Shown: one piece after another, positions 776-29,755 of the stretch
How the letters are laid out: every line of letters starts with the position of its first letter
Position numbering within the stretch: position 1 is the stretch's first letter
Assembly: GCA_964636085.1 (NCBI GenBank)
Contig: CAZWPQ010000017.1
Span: forward strand, 1-35,262
DNA: 35,262 nucleotides
DNA from: an uncultured Nitrososphaerota archaeon
GTDB lineage: Archaea > Asgardarchaeota > Njordarchaeia > Njordarchaeales > Panguiarchaeaceae
Reading direction: 5' to 3'
The notes under the pieces: generated by a model
The model's database searches: none
Told to the model about the DNA's origin: nothing
The model's input: the letters and a program-made list of their open reading frames with translations, nothing else
Position numbers and translations under genes: made by a program

Positions 776-940
776 GGTGGGCATCCCTAGCCAGCTCGAG
801 GCCCGCGTGAGCCAAATTAGTATTCGAGCTCGAGGGCTCACGTGTATTTGAACCGGCATTGCGGACCTCAGACTAGCTTAGTATTCGGGCTCAAAGGCCC
901 AAAAATCAATCAGTCTTTGAGCGGCTAGGGATGCCCTACC
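776..940 (-). ncRNA. Candidate bridge-RNA-like structured RNA in the IS110 non-coding end (strand inferred from the transposase)
   Basis: A perfect 14-bp stem (779-792 with 923-936) encloses two 24-nt modules, 817-840 and 878-901, that are 20/24 identical. Each has TTAGTATTCG plus a 4-bp hairpin with a compensatory A-T/G-C swap. It lies directly 5' of an IS110 gene. Confidence 0.7.
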
Positions 941-1140: not shown

Positions 1141-2911
1141 GTCGCAAAATTAGTTCTGTAGGGCGTTTTTGTGGCTTCTAAGTGGAAATACGAGGCGGTA
1201 GAATCAATATGTATCAAAAAGCCTCATATTTTTCACCAATGATCTTTGATAACACACCTTTATATGACACCACAGGCGAATACCCAGCAAAGACATCAAA
1301 ACCACGAACAGCACGCCTAAAATGACAAAAAACACGCCAGACCTCAACATGGTCACAACAACGCCAAAGCGAAGAAAGATCGAGACTGTCTGAACAGTTA
1401 ACAATAAAAGCGAGAGACCAACCATAACTAGCGAGTTGAAGACCAACCTGACGCCGGCCGCAGACACGACGAATAAACCACTTAAGACTCATGTTGAATC
1501 TCTCAATAATTATATTGTCCTTTGGAATTAATGGATCGTCGTAACAAGAGAAGAGTCCATCCCACCAATTTCTGAGTGTTTTGACAGCATGCCTAGCGAA
1601 ACGCAGTGCAAAATCACTATCATGGCCTCTATAGTACCTTGGATTGCATGACCGGAGGAACTTCCGACCGAAAACCTCAGCAAGGAAGTCTAAGATAGCT
1701 CTCTTTACCTCCTCTGACGGCCCCTTGCTGTCCCGCAGGATTCGCCAAATCCTAAATACCACTCGCCACGCCCATACTACCTCTTCGAAGAGAGGCTTAA
1801 GCTTGTCTAGGAGCTTCCTAATTTTTGAAAGAAGTCTAGCCATATCTACTCGTGCCCGTTTGGGCCATGGATATACAAGACTATGGAGGAGCTGATATAT
1901 TATGCCAGCTGGTTTGAATGGATATCGGGGCCTTATGCGGATGATTCGGCGAAGGCGGCGGAATACGATGTTGTTGACTTTTTTTATATAGTTTCCTATA
2001 CTCAGCCATGCTGGATATACTGTTCTTCAGTGCGCTCGCCAAGATCTTGTCTTGCTTTTGGACGGGATCCGCAAGGTTTCTTATGAAGTGGAGCTGGCAG
2101 AGCTGGTGCTTGACTTCTGGAAAGACTTTCCTTATAGCATTGACAAGATAGGTCTCTTTATCAGATACTACCCCCTTATTTTTATTCCAGCCTCCTCAAG
2201 CTTTGTGCGGACTCTTCGTAGCAGATCTACTAGGCTGTCCTTACTGTAACTTGGTAGGAGTTCGGCGTGGAGTGGTTTTCCCGTTGATGCTTCAAGAACT
2301 ATCCATAGGGTGGCTGGGCCATTCTCTGGATTCACGCCATCGATGCATATCGCTATCTCCTTGTCTTGGAATTCCTTGAGAGTTTCTTTTTCGATGACGT
2401 TGGATGCTAGTGTTAGGTAGTATTTCATGATGTCTATTGCCCTATTTCTTGTCATTGGTAGTCCTCGCTTCCTAAGGGCAGTCACGATGTACTCCCATGT
2501 CTTCTTTTCCTGTAGTCTTTTCTGGGTTATCCATGCCATGACGTCGTACCCGTATTTTCTTCTTGGTGGTGCTAGTTGTTTTTCTGGTCTTACTGTTTTG
2601 TGGTAGTTTGGGCAGTGTAGGTTGTTGCATGCGTATCTGTATTCTTTGATGGTTATGGGGCCTTGTAGTGTCCATATTGTCCTTTTGTTTAGGTAGCGGT
2701 ATATCATGTAGCCGTTGCATTCTGGGCATGTTTTATCTTGTCTTGTTAGGCTTATTGTGGTGTTTGTTTCGATTTTTGTCACCCGTTTTTCGTAATATAT
2801 GTGTAATACTTTATTTAAAAATCTATGAGGCTATATGATGCATATTGTCTCATCGGCCTACCTTAGCCATTTAAAGCCCATAAAAATGGCCTACAAATCT
2901 AGTGACGCGAC
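1141..2911 (-). mobile_element. IS element (ISNCY-like / IS256-MULE-related DDE), about 1.77 kb, with imperfect 45-bp terminal inverted repeats
   Basis: 1141-1185 (GTCGCAAAATTAGTTCTGTAGGGCG...) matches the reverse complement of 2867-2911 (GTCGCGTCACTAGATTTGTAGGCCA...) at 32/45 positions, and these repeats bracket the transposase fragments. No convincing target-site duplication. Confidence 0.75.
1214..2782 (-). pseudogene. DDE transposase (ISNCY-like) split by two homopolymer frameshifts
   Basis: N-terminal CPEC...YACNNLHC zinc ribbon and AICIDG. After a shift at C5 (2171-2175) the frame reads GVVSDKE...HQLCQLHFIRNL. After a second shift at T7 (1979-1985) it reads VNNIVFRR...RYPFKPAG and joins ORF 1214-1843, which carries PKDNIIIERF. 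Confidence 0.8.
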
Positions 2912-3171: not shown

Positions 3172-6100
3172 TCACTCCTCTACAGGCTTCTTTTTCCTAA
3201 GCAACACAAGTATGGTTGTTATTATTACTGCCGCAACACCCAATCCTATGGTTGCATAGACCCAATTCTGTACTCCAGCCGCCGTAGTTGTTGTAGTAGT
3301 TACAACGATAGTTACTACTGATGCATCAGTATTTCCCGCATAATCCATGGTTACTACACTTATCACATAGTCTCCAGGCTCCTCAGGCTTAAACATATAG
3401 GATCCCGATCCAGTCGTCTCGTACTTCAGTTCACCATTTATATATAGTTTAACGCTCTTCAGCATATAATTATCGGATGCATTCCAAGTTATGGTGATAT
3501 CCTCCCCTACACTGTATGTAGAACCATTCGCAGGAGATGTTATCTCTACTGTTGGAGGCACTGTATCTATGTGTATGTAGATAGTATCGGTAGCGGAGTT
3601 ACCAGCATAATCATAGACCGAGATATTAATGATAAACAACCCATCCTTGAGCGTTAAAGTGACATTTGTCGCATCTCCGGTTAAGCTGGTGTTCAGATGG
3701 CCATTAACATATACCTTAATACTCTCTACACCATATTCGTCGGTTACTGTCCATACAACCGTTATTTGGGGCATGTTAAGCCAACTATCGTTTGCTGGAC
3801 TTAATATAGTGATGCTTGGTGGGGTTAGATCCACATAAATGATAATCTCAGCCCTCCCTACATTTCCTATGCTATCGTACACAGCGACCTTTATCACCCA
3901 ATAACCCTCCGTGAGATTGGTTATTGAATAGCTTGTCACTGTTGGATCGGTTATCACAACTAACCTCGTACCATTAAGGTATATTTCTGTGCGGTTGAAT
4001 TCAGTCTCCACATAACTCCATGTGACATTAATGGTCTCTGTTCCTAGAACAGAACCGTTCTCTGGATACAATATTGCTACTTCGGGAGGCGTGGAATCTA
4101 TGTTCACGACTACGTAATCACTATCACTATTTCCAGCTTTATCATATGCTACTATCTCTATGATGTATGAACCATCGGATAAATATAGGGTAACATTTGA
4201 CGCTATGCCAGAGATGGTCTGGTTGAGAGTTCCATTTATGTAGACCTCAAGTTTTTCTATTGCATAGTTATCTGATACATTCCAAACTACTGTGAGGTTA
4301 CTTACCCAGCTATCGTTCTCTGGACTTACAATAACAATGCTTGGTGGCGTTAAATCTACGTATATACATACAAAATCTTCACCACGATTGCCAACAACGT
4401 CCTCTACTACTACCTCGATAACCCAGTAGCCCTCGTCTAGGTCTATTGTGAGGCTTGTTACTGTTGGGTCTGTAATGTTTTGTATCGATGTACCATTTAC
4501 AATTATTTCTGTATGATCAAAGTTTTCCTCCATGTAGTCCCATTCAATATTTATAGTTGGAGTATTGAACCAGGAGTCGTTGCTTGGAGAGATTATGTCT
4601 ACTGTGGGTGAGGTTTCATCAACATGCACTATGATTGTGGTTGTTGCGTTATTTCCTGCCCAATCAGAAGCCAATAGCGTTATTTCCCAGTCACCCTCTC
4701 CTGGAAGCGTGATGTTTGCATAGTCAATATACCATGGGTATCGTGCATATAGGCTACCATTAATGTATAGTCTATAGGAGTAGACGGAGGCATCATCCAC
4801 TCCCGTCCAATTAATCAACGTAGTAATTGGTATATAGGAACCATTTATGGGTGATGTAATTGTCACTGTTGGTGGGGAGGTATCTGGATAGTACCTGAAC
4901 CACAGTAGGATTTTCCGGAGTAAATTTCCATTCTCATAATTTAATGGATAGGGCCATCCGTCATAGAACATCTTTGAGCTTCCAGTTGCAATAATCTTAG
5001 TACCTGAGGACTCATTATAGAAGCCTGCGACAAGATTTATTGATTCGGCCCCTAAGCCAACATTATTGTTGTCTGGATCCACGGCGTATGTTGAACCTGG
5101 ATTTCCGTGTATTATTACTTCTGCATAACTAGAAACATTTAGGTATGTTCCACCTAGGTATAGTGCATAACTAATGTCGAACGTTATATTCTTGGCTATG
5201 AATCCCATTCCAAAGGCACCACGCGTGAGGTTTATCCTCCAGTTTCTGCCAAACACATAGTTTACATCATCTTTTGCCTCGCCCATATTCCATACTATAC
5301 CAAATCTACCAGTGATGTTGTTGTAGGATGCTTGTTGCCAATCAGGGAAGAATGGAGCCGGATTTACATGGCATGCCCCCATAATGAAAAGATGGCCCCC
5401 AGAGTTTAGATAGTTTCCTATGGCTACCAATTCTTCGGCAGTGAAGTTTTCTTCTATATCTGGTATGATAAGGAGTGATGTGTTTCCAAGTATGTTTGCA
5501 TCTAGAGTGCTGTTAAGGATGTATACATTGTAATTGTATATATAGTTTGCCATATCTATTAGGGTAAACATTTTGCTTGCATTATAATAAGATGTATGGT
5601 AGTTGTCGAATATTACGAGTTTTTCTGATGCCACGAATAGATTGGCTTTATCAGTAGCGTAGCCCACATTGTCTGATGACACATCTATCGTAAATATCAC
5701 ATTCTCTCCCGAGATAAAGTCCGCTGCCTCTACAAACCACTTAACTATCTTGGAGGTACCATTCTCTAGGAGTGGAATTGTATAGGACCAAGAAGCATTG
5801 GTGGTTGTTATGTTTCCATAATATGAGTGTGGTGTTACTGTTATGCTTACATTGGTCGCATTAACATCGGAGGTCGGGTTAGTTACATTAACATAGAGTA
5901 CTGTATCGTTGAAGTTCTGAAGCACTATGTAATTATTTGAGAAGTAGGCATGAACCTCTAGACCTATTGTGGAGAATGACCCCCTAATCTGGTAGCCAAA
6001 TATGGATCTATCATCATTGCTCCACGTTTTTAGCTCCATAACCACATTACTAGTTCCCACAACCTTAAAGGCGAATGTCACATTAACTATATCTCCAGAA

Positions 6101-7227
6101 TTCATTGTCCCAACATAGTAGGAATTGCTGTCATTTAGTAGTTGGAGTGCTCCATAAAACTCCACTCCCACATACACATCATTGGTAGCGACATTCTTGT
6201 AGTTTTTGACGCTAATATTTATATATACGATCTCCCCAGTAGTCAGTATGCCTGTAGGAATATCATAGGATATTATCGCTAGATCCCTATTCATGGCAGC
6301 CCTAATGCTATCGAGAAGGAAGTCCTTACTGTTTACGTCGTTGTATCCATATCTATAATCAAAGAAACCACTACCACTCGTAATTAGGGCGCATCCATTT
6401 ACTGGATTTTCAATGCCAGCAACATATATTACATTCCCATCGCAAGGTTCTGAATTAAATTCCGTGTCGTCATCACCAACGCCCATCACATATATGTATT
6501 CCCAAGTACCATTAAGATAGGATCTAGTTATATTTAAAGAGGTTGACGATCCCATTTCGACCACATATGTTCCATTCCCACTAACAAGTTTTGCTGCAGT
6601 TGTGTTTGTCCATACGTGTACTCGAGGATAGTAGTCTGCTCCATCGTTATCGGTTGGATCGGTGGTTTGTCCCCAGAGGAACTTTACTCCGAAGGGTTCA
6701 GTAATGTTATTTAGTGTATGGTTGTTGAGTCTGTCTGAGTAGTTGCTGTAGCCAGTGATTATTGCAAATCCTCTAGTCCTATTTATAAAGCTTCTAACAG
6801 CGGCTTGTTCCTCCATTGTAAGGTTTCCGTATTGTGGGTTGGGTAAAATGAAAAAGTCGTACTGGGATATGTAGGAGAAATTGTAGTAGCTAATTCCGTC
6901 TCTATCGGCTGACACGACCGTGAATCCAAATAGATTCTCCATGTCACTAATGAAGTCCTTCATGAGGGTATAGTCGTAATATGCGTATCTATCATCAATG
7001 AATACCTTCATTTCGAAAGGCAGGGTCATGCCTCTGCTATAGAGCCTATTCGCTGTATCCTTGCGAGTTATGGGGATGTACTCTAGTAGAGCGTCACCTG
7101 CAAAAGCATGTGTTTGTAGATCACCAGTAGCCTTGGTATGTTTTTCCATAAATGATGATAGCTGAGCCGAGTATATGGGATTAAATAGCATCAAAACTAG
7201 TAGCGTGGCTAGAAGAATACTCCTCAT
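3172..7227 (-). CDS. Large cell-surface protein: signal peptide, two DUF4350/GldG-like alpha/beta domains, CARDB-like domains, six Ig-like repeats, Thr linker, C-terminal TM anchor
   Basis: 1351 aa. Hydrophobic N-terminus, six D-x-T/S-x-P-x-V/I-x-I-x-S/Y-P-x-N...D-x-x-GN repeats, many N-x-S/T sequons, TTTTTT then TM then RKKK. TGGTGAT RBS upstream. Confidence 0.85.
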   Translation of the reverse strand: MRSILLATLLVLMLFNPIYSAQLSSFMEKHTKATGDLQTHAFAGDALLEYIPITRKDTANRLYSRGMTLPFEMKVFIDDRYAYYDYTLMKDFISDMENLFGFTVVSADRDGISYYNFSYISQYDFFILPNPQYGNLTMEEQAAVRSFINRTRGFAIITGYSNYSDRLNNHTLNNITEPFGVKFLWGQTTDPTDNDGADYYPRVHVWTNTTAAKLVSGNGTYVVEMGSSTSLNITRSYLNGTWEYIYVMGVGDDDTEFNSEPCDGNVIYVAGIENPVNGCALITSGSGFFDYRYGYNDVNSKDFLLDSIRAAMNRDLAIISYDIPTGILTTGEIVYINISVKNYKNVATNDVYVGVEFYGALQLLNDSNSYYVGTMNSGDIVNVTFAFKVVGTSNVVMELKTWSNDDRSIFGYQIRGSFSTIGLEVHAYFSNNYIVLQNFNDTVLYVNVTNPTSDVNATNVSITVTPHSYYGNITTTNASWSYTIPLLENGTSKIVKWFVEAADFISGENVIFTIDVSSDNVGYATDKANLFVASEKLVIFDNYHTSYYNASKMFTLIDMANYIYNYNVYILNSTLDANILGNTSLLIIPDIEENFTAEELVAIGNYLNSGGHLFIMGACHVNPAPFFPDWQQASYNNITGRFGIVWNMGEAKDDVNYVFGRNWRINLTRGAFGMGFIAKNITFDISYALYLGGTYLNVSSYAEVIIHGNPGSTYAVDPDNNNVGLGAESINLVAGFYNESSGTKIIATGSSKMFYDGWPYPLNYENGNLLRKILLWFRYYPDTSPPTVTITSPINGSYIPITTLINWTGVDDASVYSYRLYINGSLYARYPWYIDYANITLPGEGDWEITLLASDWAGNNATTTIIVHVDETSPTVDIISPSNDSWFNTPTINIEWDYMEENFDHTEIIVNGTSIQNITDPTVTSLTIDLDEGYWVIEVVVEDVVGNRGEDFVCIYVDLTPPSIVIVSPENDSWVSNLTVVWNVSDNYAIEKLEVYINGTLNQTISGIASNVTLYLSDGSYIIEIVAYDKAGNSDSDYVVVNIDSTPPEVAILYPENGSVLGTETINVTWSYVETEFNRTEIYLNGTRLVVITDPTVTSYSITNLTEGYWVIKVAVYDSIGNVGRAEIIIYVDLTPPSITILSPANDSWLNMPQITVVWTVTDEYGVESIKVYVNGHLNTSLTGDATNVTLTLKDGLFIINISVYDYAGNSATDTIYIHIDTVPPTVEITSPANGSTYSVGEDITITWNASDNYMLKSVKLYINGELKYETTGSGSYMFKPEEPGDYVISVVTMDYAGNTDASVVTIVVTTTTTTAAGVQNWVYATIGLGVAAVIITTILVLLRKKKPVEE

Positions 7228-13565: not shown

Positions 13566-16175
13566 TTAGCCTTTACCGAAGCCAAAACGCTTTAATACTA
13601 TTATCGCGATAATTACGATTACTACTATTATTAAAGCTATTAACAGCCAATTGAACTTCTCTTCTTTTTGTCGAACAATTGTATATGAAATCATCTCCTC
13701 AGCTATGTTCCCAGCATAATCAGTGACAACTATTCTAAGCGATACTGTGACATTATTTTCGGAGGGTATGGCTATTCTGGCAACCCACAGATTATTCTCT
13801 AGGCTCGCGTTGACATGATTCCATATCTCTCCATCAGTAGAATAATATACCACAACTTTTGAGACCCCTGAGAGGTTATCGCTTGCATTTACCCTAACCA
13901 CAACAATATTGCCTTCTTGCGATACATTGACTGAGTATATTATTGGTGGGGCATTGTCTACATACACGCCTAGCATATCCTCAGCAGTAAGGCCAAAACT
14001 ATCGCATGCAATGGCTCTTATCAAATAGTATCCATCATCGTACTTGGATGTATTCCATGTAAATATGTAGGGGGCGGCGGTCATGTTATCTAGTAATGAG
14101 CCGTTAAGGTAGACAGCTACCCATGAAAGTCCGGAGGAGTCAGTAGCATTAACTATGATTTGCACTATTCCACGAAGATACACGGCTGTGGGACTAATGA
14201 TGTTTATTGTTGGCGGGAGGTTATATATTACGTAGATTTTAACCGACTTGAGATTTCCAAAGATATCGTATATATTTATGGTTATTGTATACTCCTTCTC
14301 GATCTCTGGGGTATATTGTGTCTGATAGGGCGGTGTCCTTAATATAGCAATAATATTACTATCCACATAGATCTCTACTCTATCGATTTCCGTGTTGTCT
14401 GTAGCATTTACAGAAATTATGAATGTGCCAGAAACAAATGAATGATTGGCTGGTGATGTACTTATTAATGTCGGTTCCTGTGTGTCTGGACTTACCACAG
14501 GCTCAGATAAATAGGGCGAATATGCTATATAAGATGAGCTATAAAGTTCCTCAGGGTCATACGGATCGCCGGTCGCTGTTAATTCTGGTCCCAGCTCAGA
14601 TCCCCACCAGTTATATGTTGCATTTATATTTATGCTTGCGCAATAGAGCCCGACATCTCTGTTAAGCGAGAATGTACTATTATGCACTGTTAGGGGGGTA
14701 CTGCTATCATATATTCCGTGATATTCATTGAGAACAAACGCAGAGTATGTGATATTTATAGGGCACGAATAATGCAGATAGGCACCATAGTAATTATGGA
14801 TAAATGTGGAATTTCTAACAATTATGGCCCCCCCAATATCCCCATCAACATATAGCCCTGCGTATCCCCCAGATGAGACAATTTTTTCCATGGTTATGTT
14901 ACCGCACGAAACGATGTTTATTCCATATGTTGATACATTCCGTATTGTGATATTCCTACACCCTACTAATATTAGCTCTCCATAATTCACGTCTTTAATT
15001 GTCTTTAGATTTTCACTCACCCACCAGAGCACGGAAAGGTCGTTTATTGTGTTTCCAGAAACTGTATATTCTGCCATGTCTACAAGGTCATCTTCCAGTA
15101 CTAAGATCGATCCATTGTATATCGAGTTTTCTGATATCAAGATGTTTTGTACATCAACATCATATATTTTCATGGCTATATGTTGTCTTCGAGCTATTAT
15201 TGTATTTGACTCTATAACCACATTTGCACAGTCTCTATATATATCGACACTACCATGTATTCTATTGTTTCTAATCTTCACATCATCGTCGGCAATGCGG
15301 ATGGCTGTAGGACTCCCCTCCGAAGTGATTGTGGATCCAGTGATTAGTGACGTATCATCCAGATACATGCCATATGCATAATACCGAAATGTCAAATCAC
15401 AATTCTTTATCGTTAAATTGTCGCCATAGAATATCAAATTATTAGCGCTTACGGTGGTGCTACTGATAGTCACATTTGCACCCGAGATATAGATGTCTAG
15501 GTTTATATCCACTTGGGAGCTTTCTATGTTTATGCATGGTGAGCTCACCATAGTTAATTCATTGGTGTCAATATGGATGTGATATATATGACCTGTTATA
15601 TTATTAAAAACGATCTCATCATCGTTAATAATGTCACAGTTTTTGGCATCTAGGTTTGAATCAACAATCTCCACTTTGTAGGTGTTTATCTCTGTGTTGG
15701 ATCCAAACTTTACGCTCGACTCGTCATAGAAACTCAGATACTTAACATATAACGTATTGTTGTTGCTAGAGTTGAATACAGAGCCATAAGTCTCCAATTC
15801 GTAGCAATTTTGTATTTTTGATGAAGAGAGCTCTATGATGGATCCTTCATATGCATAGATTTCATAGAGATACGATGCAGATGAAGATTTTATTGTGGAG
15901 TTTTCTAATACAAGTTTGCCGTGGACATATATATCATCGGTTGTTTCCGCGGAGAAGTTACTCATGATTAGTATGGAGTTCCTGAGAGTTAACTGACTCG
16001 TAATGTTTATTGAACCATTTATCATAAGTACTTCATTCTCAACTATTGTTGGCTGAGTTACATTCCAAACCCCCCACCTCGGGGGATTCACTCCAGATAT
16101 CGACTTTGATCCTGAAGCCCCCACACCCCAATAGAATCCCAATACAACAAGAAATAGTATGAAATACTCCCTCAT
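13566..16175 (-). CDS. Cell-surface protein: right-handed beta-helix (pectin-lyase-like) region, three Ig-like domains, C-terminal TM anchor
   Basis: Signal peptide, Asn/Ile/Ser-rich beta-helix repeats, NATYNWWG motif, DTQEP/NLPP/DNAPP Ig units, TM then KR tail. Confidence 0.85.
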   Translation of the reverse strand: MREYFILFLVVLGFYWGVGASGSKSISGVNPPRWGVWNVTQPTIVENEVLMINGSINITSQLTLRNSILIMSNFSAETTDDIYVHGKLVLENSTIKSSSASYLYEIYAYEGSIIELSSSKIQNCYELETYGSVFNSSNNNTLYVKYLSFYDESSVKFGSNTEINTYKVEIVDSNLDAKNCDIINDDEIVFNNITGHIYHIHIDTNELTMVSSPCINIESSQVDINLDIYISGANVTISSTTVSANNLIFYGDNLTIKNCDLTFRYYAYGMYLDDTSLITGSTITSEGSPTAIRIADDDVKIRNNRIHGSVDIYRDCANVVIESNTIIARRQHIAMKIYDVDVQNILISENSIYNGSILVLEDDLVDMAEYTVSGNTINDLSVLWWVSENLKTIKDVNYGELILVGCRNITIRNVSTYGINIVSCGNITMEKIVSSGGYAGLYVDGDIGGAIIVRNSTFIHNYYGAYLHYSCPINITYSAFVLNEYHGIYDSSTPLTVHNSTFSLNRDVGLYCASININATYNWWGSELGPELTATGDPYDPEELYSSSYIAYSPYLSEPVVSPDTQEPTLISTSPANHSFVSGTFIISVNATDNTEIDRVEIYVDSNIIAILRTPPYQTQYTPEIEKEYTITINIYDIFGNLKSVKIYVIYNLPPTINIISPTAVYLRGIVQIIVNATDSSGLSWVAVYLNGSLLDNMTAAPYIFTWNTSKYDDGYYLIRAIACDSFGLTAEDMLGVYVDNAPPIIYSVNVSQEGNIVVVRVNASDNLSGVSKVVVYYSTDGEIWNHVNASLENNLWVARIAIPSENNVTVSLRIVVTDYAGNIAEEMISYTIVRQKEEKFNWLLIALIIVVIVIIAIIVLKRFGFGKG

Positions 16176-16381
16176 CAGAGACACCTATGTGTCTCCTTGT
16201 ACTGTAATAAGAATTTAGAAAATCAATTTATAACAGTTTTGCAAATTTTCTAACGACATTTAGAGGATACTCTTGCCGGGGATTTCATAGTATTTAAAAA
16301 TTTATCCAATATGGCGACGAACCAAAGCTTTTCTCAGTTTTTTAATATCATATTTCGCAATATCTTAATAGGTGATGGTCC

Positions 16382-27217: not shown

Positions 27218-29569
27218 TTACTTTCGCCGCTTCCAATAGAATACAGATCCTATCAATGCAAAAACAACTACTGGCACAATTATCCAAATAAATGAAATTT
27301 CTTTCGGATAACTACCTGGATCCAGAGGATCTGTTCCTTTCTCAACTTCCACGCCGTCATAGTATCCATCTCCATCTGTGTCTGGGTTCGTTGGATCGGT
27401 ACTATGCGTATATTCATCACGATTTACTAGGCCATCATTATCAGGATCCTCCTGTCCGTCGTCTACAGTGGGGTCAAGATCATAGGTTACTTCCCAACCA
27501 TCAGGCATACCGTCACCGTCAGTATCGCTGTTGAGTGGGTCTGTTCCTAGATTGTATTCTTGGAGATTTGTCAATCCATCACCATCCATATCTTCAGAGG
27601 AATCTCTTCTCAGGGGATCAAGTCCATATAGAACTTCCCATCCATCAGGCATACCATCACGGTCTGTATCGTTTTTTACTGGATTAGTATTATAAGTATC
27701 GACTTCATCACCATCCGTGAGGCCATCATTATCTGTATCATTATTCTGTGGATCTGTTTCGTATAGATATTCCCGCAGATTACTTAGTCCATCTCCATCC
27801 AAATCTTCCAACGAGTCATTTCTAAGGGGGTCCAGCCCATGTTGTATTTCCCAATAGTCGGGCATGCGATCAAAATCTGTATCACTACTTGTTGGGTCGG
27901 TATTATAGATATACTCTTGGATATTCGTTATACCGTCAGAATCCCAATCCTCCAGCGAGTTATCCTCAAAGGGGTTCAATCCATACAACACCTCCCATCC
28001 ATCGGGTATACCGTCAAGATCAGTATCCATGTTCGTTAGGTTTGTACCGAATACATCCTCCTCGATATCGTTTAATCCATCATTGTCAATGTCATGTATG
28101 ATATATTGCTCGATCTTATCGATTAGAGGCATCGTGTCATTCTGGTAGGGAACATCCCCAATACCATCACCATTTGTGTCGTTCCCAGAATATTTGCTCC
28201 AGTGGTTACCCGTTCTATTGCTCCAATCATTACCACCATAAGTATATGAGATACTCTCGTTTGAGACAAATATATTTCCAGTAAATTGATTCACATGATA
28301 TGTGTTGCTGATAAAGTTGTTAAAGAAAATGCTGTTATTATATGCATTATTGAAATCTATTCCATAGGTGCTATGTTGAAGCGTATTGCCGACAATAATA
28401 CATAACTGAGAGTCTTCGAGTAGGATGTTTGCGCTAGAAAGATCGATATAATTCGCATAGACGATGCATTTCGTGCTACTTATAATTATCCCACGGGCCG
28501 ATGTATTAACCAGTATGTTGTGGCTAATAATGTTTTTTGAGGACATATAGAGATTTATACCGTATAGGCAATCCCTTATATCATTATTTTTGATGACATT
28601 TCCATTGTTGGAGTATCGTAATTCTATAGATGATGTCCCCCCACTAAGAGTGTTATAGTATACCCGACTAGATGACGAATACTCCAAGCTGATCCCAATA
28701 TTTTCGCTTATAACACTATTATTACTTACTATGGTCTTATTGGAGTATTGCACCCGAGCCCCTATAGGTCCTCTAATAGAGTTAGAGTATATATAGTTGA
28801 GGCAGGAGAATTCGACAGATATGCCTGCATATTCGTCCTCAATATCATTGTGGTGAACAAAATTATTCTCGGAGTAGCTTATATCGATGCTATATACCGC
28901 ATCAGTAAATGTGTTCCAGAATATATAATTGCTGGATGAATACTCAAGCAAAACCCCTCTATACCCATCCATCTCGATGTTATTATTATATATAAAGCTC
29001 ATGGATGAGTTATAGACATATATGCCATAGTCGCAACCAGAAATTGTACAATTACGTATATAGGTCTTTGAGGAATGGTTAAGATATACCCCATAGTACC
29101 AATTTTCGAGCCTAATATTCTTTATGACCACATTCTTTGATCTCAGCACATAGATCCCATATCCAAAATAATTGCTACTAGAAGCATTGACCACATGGCC
29201 ATCGCCATCTAACACTACATTATTCGCCATGATGTAAATGCATGTAGAGTACCCGCAATTAACTATGTCCTCAGTAAGTTTATAGTGCCCAGGGGCACAA
29301 ATAACCATATAGGCATGCACTAGACCCCTTGTAGACATCCGTGCGGAACAATATCCGCTATTTAGGATAATACCAGATCTATAGCCATTAGCACGTAGAT
29401 AAGTATGGCCCCCAGGCTCTATTCTTATTATTGGAGATCTCTCATATCCAGCATAGTGGCTGCCAGATATATTATATCTAATGTTATCAAATAACGATAC
29501 AAGAGAGGCAAACATCAGAAGTGACAAAATTAAAAACTGGGAAGTCCTAAAGTGAGGTGCCAATTTCAT
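27218..29569 (-). CDS. Surface protein: NosD/CASH-like beta-helix, Ca-binding DxDxDG (TSP3-like) repeats, C-terminal TM anchor
   Basis: Signal peptide, VVLDGDGH, GIxLxxSSxNxIxxN repeats, GNHWSKY...DTNGDGIGD, eleven DxDxDG/R repeats, TM then KRRK. Confidence 0.88.
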
Positions 29570-29755
29570 ACACCCACAACTACATAACAAGCAAATATAA
29601 AAAAATTATTTCCCGTATAGATTCTATAAAAAATATTTATAATAGCATGGTGAGTTTAAGAAATTATGGATCATTTTCCCGATATACGGGTATGGAGAAA
29701 AGTTTATATTCTCTTATATTCCTAGTTTAGTATGGCCTTGAATTTGGCCTGTTTT

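Follow-up and report, generated by a model that had tools for sequence, protein, structure and literature searches.

In an IS110 element of an Asgard archaeon, the left guide of the donor-binding loop of the predicted bridge RNA matches a motif inside the left end of the element, on the same strand as the site read by the right donor guide, and is highly likely to pair with it. An IS110 bridge system is of a known kind; a same-strand left donor guide would, judged from the literature searched, be new. The element lies at the start of the window, by which we mean the whole 35,262-nt stretch of contig CAZWPQ010000017.1 (assembly GCA_964636085.1) from an uncultured Njordarchaeales (Asgard) archaeon. 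The complete proposal developed here, which combines a minus-strand bridge RNA, self-targeting, a same-strand donor guide and a fold-back donor, appears fairly probable to us.

The predicted bridge RNA and its gene

The initial annotation had read positions 776-940 as the bridge RNA of an archaeal IS110 element. The underlying sequence features are present as described: 779-792 and 923-936 are exact reverse complements forming a 14-bp stem, the two modules at 817-840 and 878-901 are identical at 20 of 24 positions (repeat family D4), each carries a 4-bp hairpin (826-829/836-839 and 887-890/897-900) with the compensatory change A827-T838 versus G888-C899, and variable segments occupy 841-847 and 901-909. 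The 776-940 stretch folds more stably than shuffled sequence on both strands (z=-6.1 for plus, z=-9.5 for minus). Alignment of homologous upstream regions, which had been suggested as a check, was carried out on 12 distinct Njordarchaeales homologues with protein identity down to about 40%; the whole fold aligned and covaried. Two-sided changes were found at 18 of the 31 pairs in four helices, none of 500 shuffles was as good, and 94% of the cells were paired over the 12 homologues versus 30-44% in slid controls. The homologues thus support the original assignment, and the entity is almost certainly an IS110 bridge RNA. No Rfam family came close to its threshold for this stretch.

The RNA very probably functions on the minus strand, in transposase sense, from about 942 to 773 (feature 773-942, ends predicted; covariation in alignment A4; E=2e-33 for model R2). 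The RNA is read on this strand because G-U pairs outnumber A-C pairs on the gene strand (19 vs 9 in the 12-homologue alignment) and because one G-U pair is invariant in 12/12 homologues, its plus-strand equivalent being A-C. The minus strand folds into two complete binding loops, and it alone has guides that end in the core, as in IS621. An RNA on the plus strand was considered and rejected: the core falls at the wrong end of the guide, and A-C stands where the minus strand has G-U. The earlier plus-strand parse had therefore interchanged left and right guides.

Read on the minus strand, the RNA consists of one side of the closing stem, the target-binding loop (916-870), the donor-binding loop (869-798) and the other side of the closing stem. 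The closing stem pairs 779-797 with 918-936 and is longer than the 14 bp first described, with 18 consensus pairs, 12 of them showing two-sided changes. The target loop contains a left guide (910-902), a hairpin (900-887), a right guide (886-878) that ends in the core AA, and handshake bases (877-876); its right guide follows the insertion flank in all lineages. The donor loop contains a left guide (847-841), a hairpin (839-826) and a right guide (825-817); the right guide equals the right end at 7/7 positions and the left guide equals the motif at 1003-997, also 7/7. The layout had been described as unlike that of IS621 on two counts. The long closing stem around both loops is conserved and, on the evidence of the alignment, is a genuine feature of the family. 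The shared side of the two loops does not hold as a trait of the RNA family: their right guides are unlike each other in most relatives, and the identity seen here reflects self-targeting.

Structured leader and antisense RNAs exist in ISPpu9, and the good folding of both strands here would suit such a role. We nonetheless find it extremely improbable that the fold acts as an antisense RNA, or as a 5' leader controlling translation, instead of as a guide, since four loop segments covary with the DNA ends and flanks; a regulatory role could be additional to guiding and is no alternative to it. TIGR-Tas systems are arrays of short dual-spacer units accompanied by a Tas protein. This candidate was rejected, as the match to NF052498 reached 25.9 bits (cut-off 100) and a single two-loop RNA lies here within a mobile element.

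The 5' part of the recombinase gene (DEDD/Tnp; PF01548, E=2e-12) occupies 1-746 of the minus strand. It starts at 746, directly downstream of the bridge RNA, and its remainder would lie past the contig start. A 1-nt deletion near 47-52 shifts the frame, while three other sequencing runs have an extra base after 47; with the frameshift and the contig end, this copy is without the serine part. An intact 373-aa protein, P0002 (locus L035), falls in the same 90% cluster and passes NF033542 (212.8 bits, cut-off 140), which makes it an IS110 family recombinase. Residues D17, E64, D101, D104 and S291 are invariant and correspond to the D-E-D-D motif plus the catalytic serine. The stretch occurs in vent and sediment metagenome runs and, given the vent samples, a thermostable recombinase is plausible. 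No RNA run is among those listed with the stretch, an absence that has no bearing on expression.

Further copies were noted beside this one. Two more lineages of the subfamily in genome G000, one on contigs C7, C39, C44, C47, C63 and C86 and the other on C18, C30, C37, C43, C53, C86 and C97, are multi-copy, each with its own target guide, and the assembly is broken at most of their copies. Another IS110 with about 33% identity (L025, on C77 of G000, and L018) has a different upstream RNA that gives no match to R2, and in G004 an IS110 of this type sits immediately upstream of an element of the C7 type. At L217, L219 and L230, RNA matches with bridge-like loops have no transposase match nearby and may be non-autonomous RNA carriers.

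Element ends, target loop and tandem arrays

The boundaries were located from independent insertions, whose flanks diverge at a fixed AA at both ends. On the left this core dinucleotide is 1034-1035 (TT on plus, AA on minus), which sets the left boundary of the full element. Empty alleles were found on contig C87, for one right flank, and in a repeat family, for a left flank; none contains the conserved hairpin seen at 1007-1024. Head-to-tail junctions, whether they stem from circles, from tandem copies or from loops in the assembly, show one constant order: right end, core, 8-9 nt, hairpin, motif, repeat. Being outside the empty sites and inside all junctions, the hairpin is part of the element. 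A 2-nt core at both ends, scarless insertion and the head-to-tail junction are all as in IS110. Subterminal inverted repeats are present, as in the IS1111 group, and the left one lies at 984-993, where it forms a 10-bp stem in the DNA fold with a partner of the type at 1040-1049. The long right end with RNA that marks the IS1111 group was not found: here the RNA is upstream and the right end measures about 70 nt.

These flanks also bear on whether the RNA could be canonical and use another core, within 1000-1003 and 1037-1040, the hairpin then belonging to a repeated target. The two closest lineages do have a 4-5 nt word common to both ends, and ISPpu10 does use a target hairpin. However, divergence between the flanks of independent insertions begins outside the hairpin, which is present in tandem junctions and absent from empty sites; the handshake bases indicate 1034-1035, and the shared word is lost in other lineages. 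We regard this placement of the core as very improbable and keep 1034-1035. Inversion of the left-end tip by the recombinase was rejected too: the two dinucleotides that flank the tip do not make a pair of inverted cores, and all lineages share one arrangement.

The target loop follows the canonical pattern, and its geometry matches that of IS621 once the DNA is read on the opposite strand to the gene. Across all lineages, its right guide matches the core together with 3-5 of the 5 flank positions to the left of the element. The first handshake base is the first base of the left end in 10/10 correctly registered elements, all four bases being represented, in a comparison that is partly circular as the search also scored handshake bases (the L215 row is off by one base). 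The left guide gives a good prediction of the other flank in L233, L028, L046 and L047 and a poor one in the lineage of the window; both sides of the target are thus read on opposite strands as in IS621, with a loose left guide in this lineage. In L034 and L038 the target right guide carries a two-base change, and the L034 flank has changed alongside it; by sequence, this is a natural reprogramming event.

In the lineage of the window, the right guides of the target and donor loops are equal, so that the target half-site is the element's own right end. The full element adjoins the right end of a mini-element (1036-1049), and most left flanks in the lineage are right ends; run X6 also shows a genuine chromosomal site that is identical in the 5 bases and the core. 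Self-matching target guides and tandem junctions occur together in three separate lineages, whereas the lineages with differing right guides show a tandem junction in none of more than 20 flanks. A Caballeronia element and another Asgard family likewise combine guide convergence with arrays. Tandem expansion of IS110 elements is known in general. We infer that self-targeting causes the arrays: equal right guides would direct insertion to the element's own right end, the site would be regenerated, and tandem arrays with mini-elements would build up.

The mini-element next to the full element is non-autonomous and spans 1036-1140 on the minus strand (left end 1140-1097, right end 1049-1036). Its tandem arrangement with the full element makes 984-1049 a donor-type junction. 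An unrelated broken insertion sequence (1141-2908, minus strand, right coordinate approximate) cuts the start of its left end, and the missing first bases are visible in run X1, where a loose end lies at 1141. This insertion sequence gives weak matches to DUF6431, ISL3 and ISKra4, and its end is repeated on at least 6 other contigs. Another Asgard family (L228:2909-3100, L008, L009, L218, L221) has arrays of mini-elements of 55-60 bp, each consisting of just a left end and a right end, on both sides of full elements; the target guide of the full elements beside them resembles their own right end.

The left guide of the donor loop

The right guide of the donor loop behaves as in known systems, matching the right end at 7/7 positions in 13 of 18 elements and at 6/7 in the other five. 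The left guide has no match to the adjacent bottom strand, where the best score anywhere in the loop arm is 4-6 of 9. The contiguous 14-bp donor of IS621, with a left guide that pairs next to the core, is absent. Instead, the left guide corresponds to a motif located 19-30 nt into the left end, on the strand of the right-guide site; in the window this motif lies at 997-1003 on the plus strand, between the conserved DNA hairpin and the subterminal inverted repeat. Motif and guide change together through at least 8 sequence states across lineages. The longest same-strand match is 6-10 nt in 16 of 18 elements and at least 7 nt in 15, compared with 4-6 nt for opposite-strand controls and a mean of 5.0 for cross-lineage controls.

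The same-strand rule was set on four Njordarchaeales lineages and then applied to loci found later. Matches of 7-10 nt were obtained in another Asgard family, family f19, Methanoperedens and two Clostridia. None of 200000 permutations over 11 lineages equalled the observed fit (p<1e-5), and 131 of 200000 did so over the seven lineages added after the rule (p=7e-4), p-values that overstate independence because the lineages are related. A cruder automatic test, in which several repeats were mislocated, gave 9/100000. Exceptions are L222, with neither hairpin nor same-strand match, L224 (4/7) and L034 (6/7); L266 was missed by the fixed search interval and fits by eye only. In Bacilli, ISArsp3 and proteobacterial relatives, whose donor loops are longer, the corresponding position has weaker matches of 6 nt. 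On these comparisons, one defining feature of the IS621 rule is missing, and a wide range of hosts has a conserved alternative in its place. The literature searched, with subscription journals outside it, contains no description of a same-strand or fold-back donor.

Could recombination proceed from the right-guide half-matches alone, with binding of the motif by the left donor guide serving another purpose, such as holding the recombinase on the element or repressing the promoter of RNA and gene? Right-donor-only events are the commonest half-match class of IS621, the left target guide is loose here as well, and a promoter would be expected at the position of the motif, about 60 nt upstream of the RNA. 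This leaves unexplained the fixed register of the motif between hairpin and repeat and its retention in mini-elements that have no RNA. We consider this explanation improbable and favour a motif that is part of the donor.

Variant arrangements were seen among the relatives. In Methanoperedens, a related element occupies a constant position within the hairpin end of an IS200/IS605-family element (L233, L235-L239), and in L232 and L234 the target loop is lost and a piece of the donor loop is duplicated. The bacterial relatives L242, L243, L262 and L271 have an AG core, a longer donor loop and tandem copies with target guides single bases apart.

A proposed fold-back donor and its relation to known systems

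Folded as single-stranded DNA, the junction 984-1049 forms a 10-bp stem of the repeats, a bubble and the hairpin (z=-4.7), and most relatives fold alike. The two sides of the bubble are equal within 0-2 nt, about 14x16 here and 16x16, 12x12 or 12x13 elsewhere. With sides this similar, the motif faces the top strand of the left donor, a place taken in IS621 by the bottom strand. On this basis we propose the following mechanism. The bridge RNA, transcribed in the direction of the transposase, would guide the IS110 recombinase, and the block of RNA and gene is flipped with respect to IS621, the cut ('top') strand being the one that lies opposite to the gene. Covariation shows the partners of the guides: on the target, the right guide would pair with the core and some 4-5 nt of the adjoining flank, and the left guide loosely with the other side; on the donor, the right guide would pair with the right end and the left guide with the internal left-end motif on the same strand. 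The top strand would fold back, closed on one side by the subterminal repeats and on the other by the hairpin, and the motif would replace the bottom strand across an unpaired bubble of 12-16 nt containing the core. A single strand could then suffice for both donor guides. Such a donor would fit single-strand copy-out: a folded single-stranded or cruciform circle may be inserted by top-strand exchange only, host replication completing the insertion as at an integron attC site. We lean towards an attC-like fold-back donor of this kind, single-stranded or cruciform.

IS621 and CazIS110 are reported to excise a single top strand, and CazIS110 inserts single-stranded donors poorly on the LD side, a handicap that a fold-back donor would remove. 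Same-strand pairing might also take place on ordinary duplex DNA, through two separate small R-loops and protein-driven bending, the hairpin being incidental or acting in RNA as a terminator or processing signal that insulates the bridge RNA. Duplex DNA is known to support half-match and donor-only reactions, the ISPpu9 palindrome is not strictly required for circles, and the hairpin mismatches give an unclear strand bias (G-T vs A-C, 6 vs 4, with some seeds off register). Against this, the motif lies within 0-2 nt of the register of the missing strand, counted from the hairpin and from the repeat, and this register is kept in lineages with unlike repeats, hairpins and motifs; furthermore, no terminator-like site was found at the hairpin. 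The duplex alternative seems unlikely to us, although less so than the half-match one, and we retain the fold-back donor as the working model.

The closest characterized systems, IS621 and ISCro4 (PMC11208160, PMC11208158, PMC13626964), share with the present element a DEDD plus catalytic serine protein, an upstream sense RNA with two stem-guide-hairpin-guide loops, a 2-nt core, the 7+2+1 register of the left guide, handshake bases and a right donor guide on the top strand. In contrast to them, RNA and gene are flipped here relative to the recombining ends, the core is TT/AA and not CT, one long closing stem surrounds both loops, and subterminal repeats of 8-11 bp are present. Their left donor guide reads the adjacent bottom strand, whereas the guide described here would read a distant motif on the top strand.

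ISPpu9 of Pseudomonas putida has a 43-bp left box that starts at the core and contains a palindrome, a 16-bp right box and tandem MITEs, and does not need target flanks to form circles (PMC12288879). Circles were still detected by end-point PCR after mutation of the palindrome, and were no longer detected after deletion of the left box or change of core-adjacent bases (PMC12288879). That study did not map the donor guides and proposed no fold-back (PMC12288879). The present element resembles ISPpu9 in left-box size, palindrome type and tandem MITEs, a kinship that we infer from the published description of ISPpu9; if ISPpu9 is a member, the hairpin would not be essential for excision. A Caballeronia relative has the same palindrome type, an AG core and a tandem junction. 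Like the IS1111 group, the element has subterminal repeats (7-17 bp there) with the right repeat 3-6 nt from the core; unlike that group, its RNA is upstream and not downstream, and its left repeat is displaced 30-45 nt inward by hairpin and motif. As in ISPpu10 (10.64898/2026.03.19.712850), a DNA hairpin beside the crossover would matter; that of ISPpu10 is in the target, whereas the one described here is inside the element and would relocate the binding site of a guide.

The protein tree did not establish a single clade, as it had no characterized outgroup and its L129 and L262 rows were in the wrong frame. We give about an even chance to a widespread IS110 subfamily, in Asgard archaea, Methanoperedens, Bacillota and probably ISPpu9-like and ISArsp3-like elements, that uses an RNA-read fold-back single-stranded donor and in which those lineages with a target guide converging on their own end build up arrays of 55-110 bp mini-elements. 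In integron attC sites and in IS200/IS605, one specific folded strand is the substrate, and one strand is exchanged before replication resolves the product. There the structure is read by a protein, with a tyrosine or HUH enzyme, whereas in the present proposal it would be read by RNA, with a DEDD/serine enzyme.

It is currently debated whether the circles through which IS110 elements move are single- or double-stranded; here, the sequence alone predicts a donor that both guides could read on one strand. If this is true, the rule by which every loop reads its staggered sites from opposite strands changes, the left-end palindrome of ISPpu9-like elements is accounted for, and pipelines that score only core-adjacent sequence would miss the left donor guide. 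The system would then be an RNA-guided counterpart of the attC site, offering programmable insertion of single-stranded DNA with a compact, probably heat-stable recombinase for single-stranded cargo.

Elsewhere in the window, three large predicted surface proteins are encoded at 3172-7227, 13566-16184 and 27218-29590, with Ig-like, beta-helix and TSP3 repeats.
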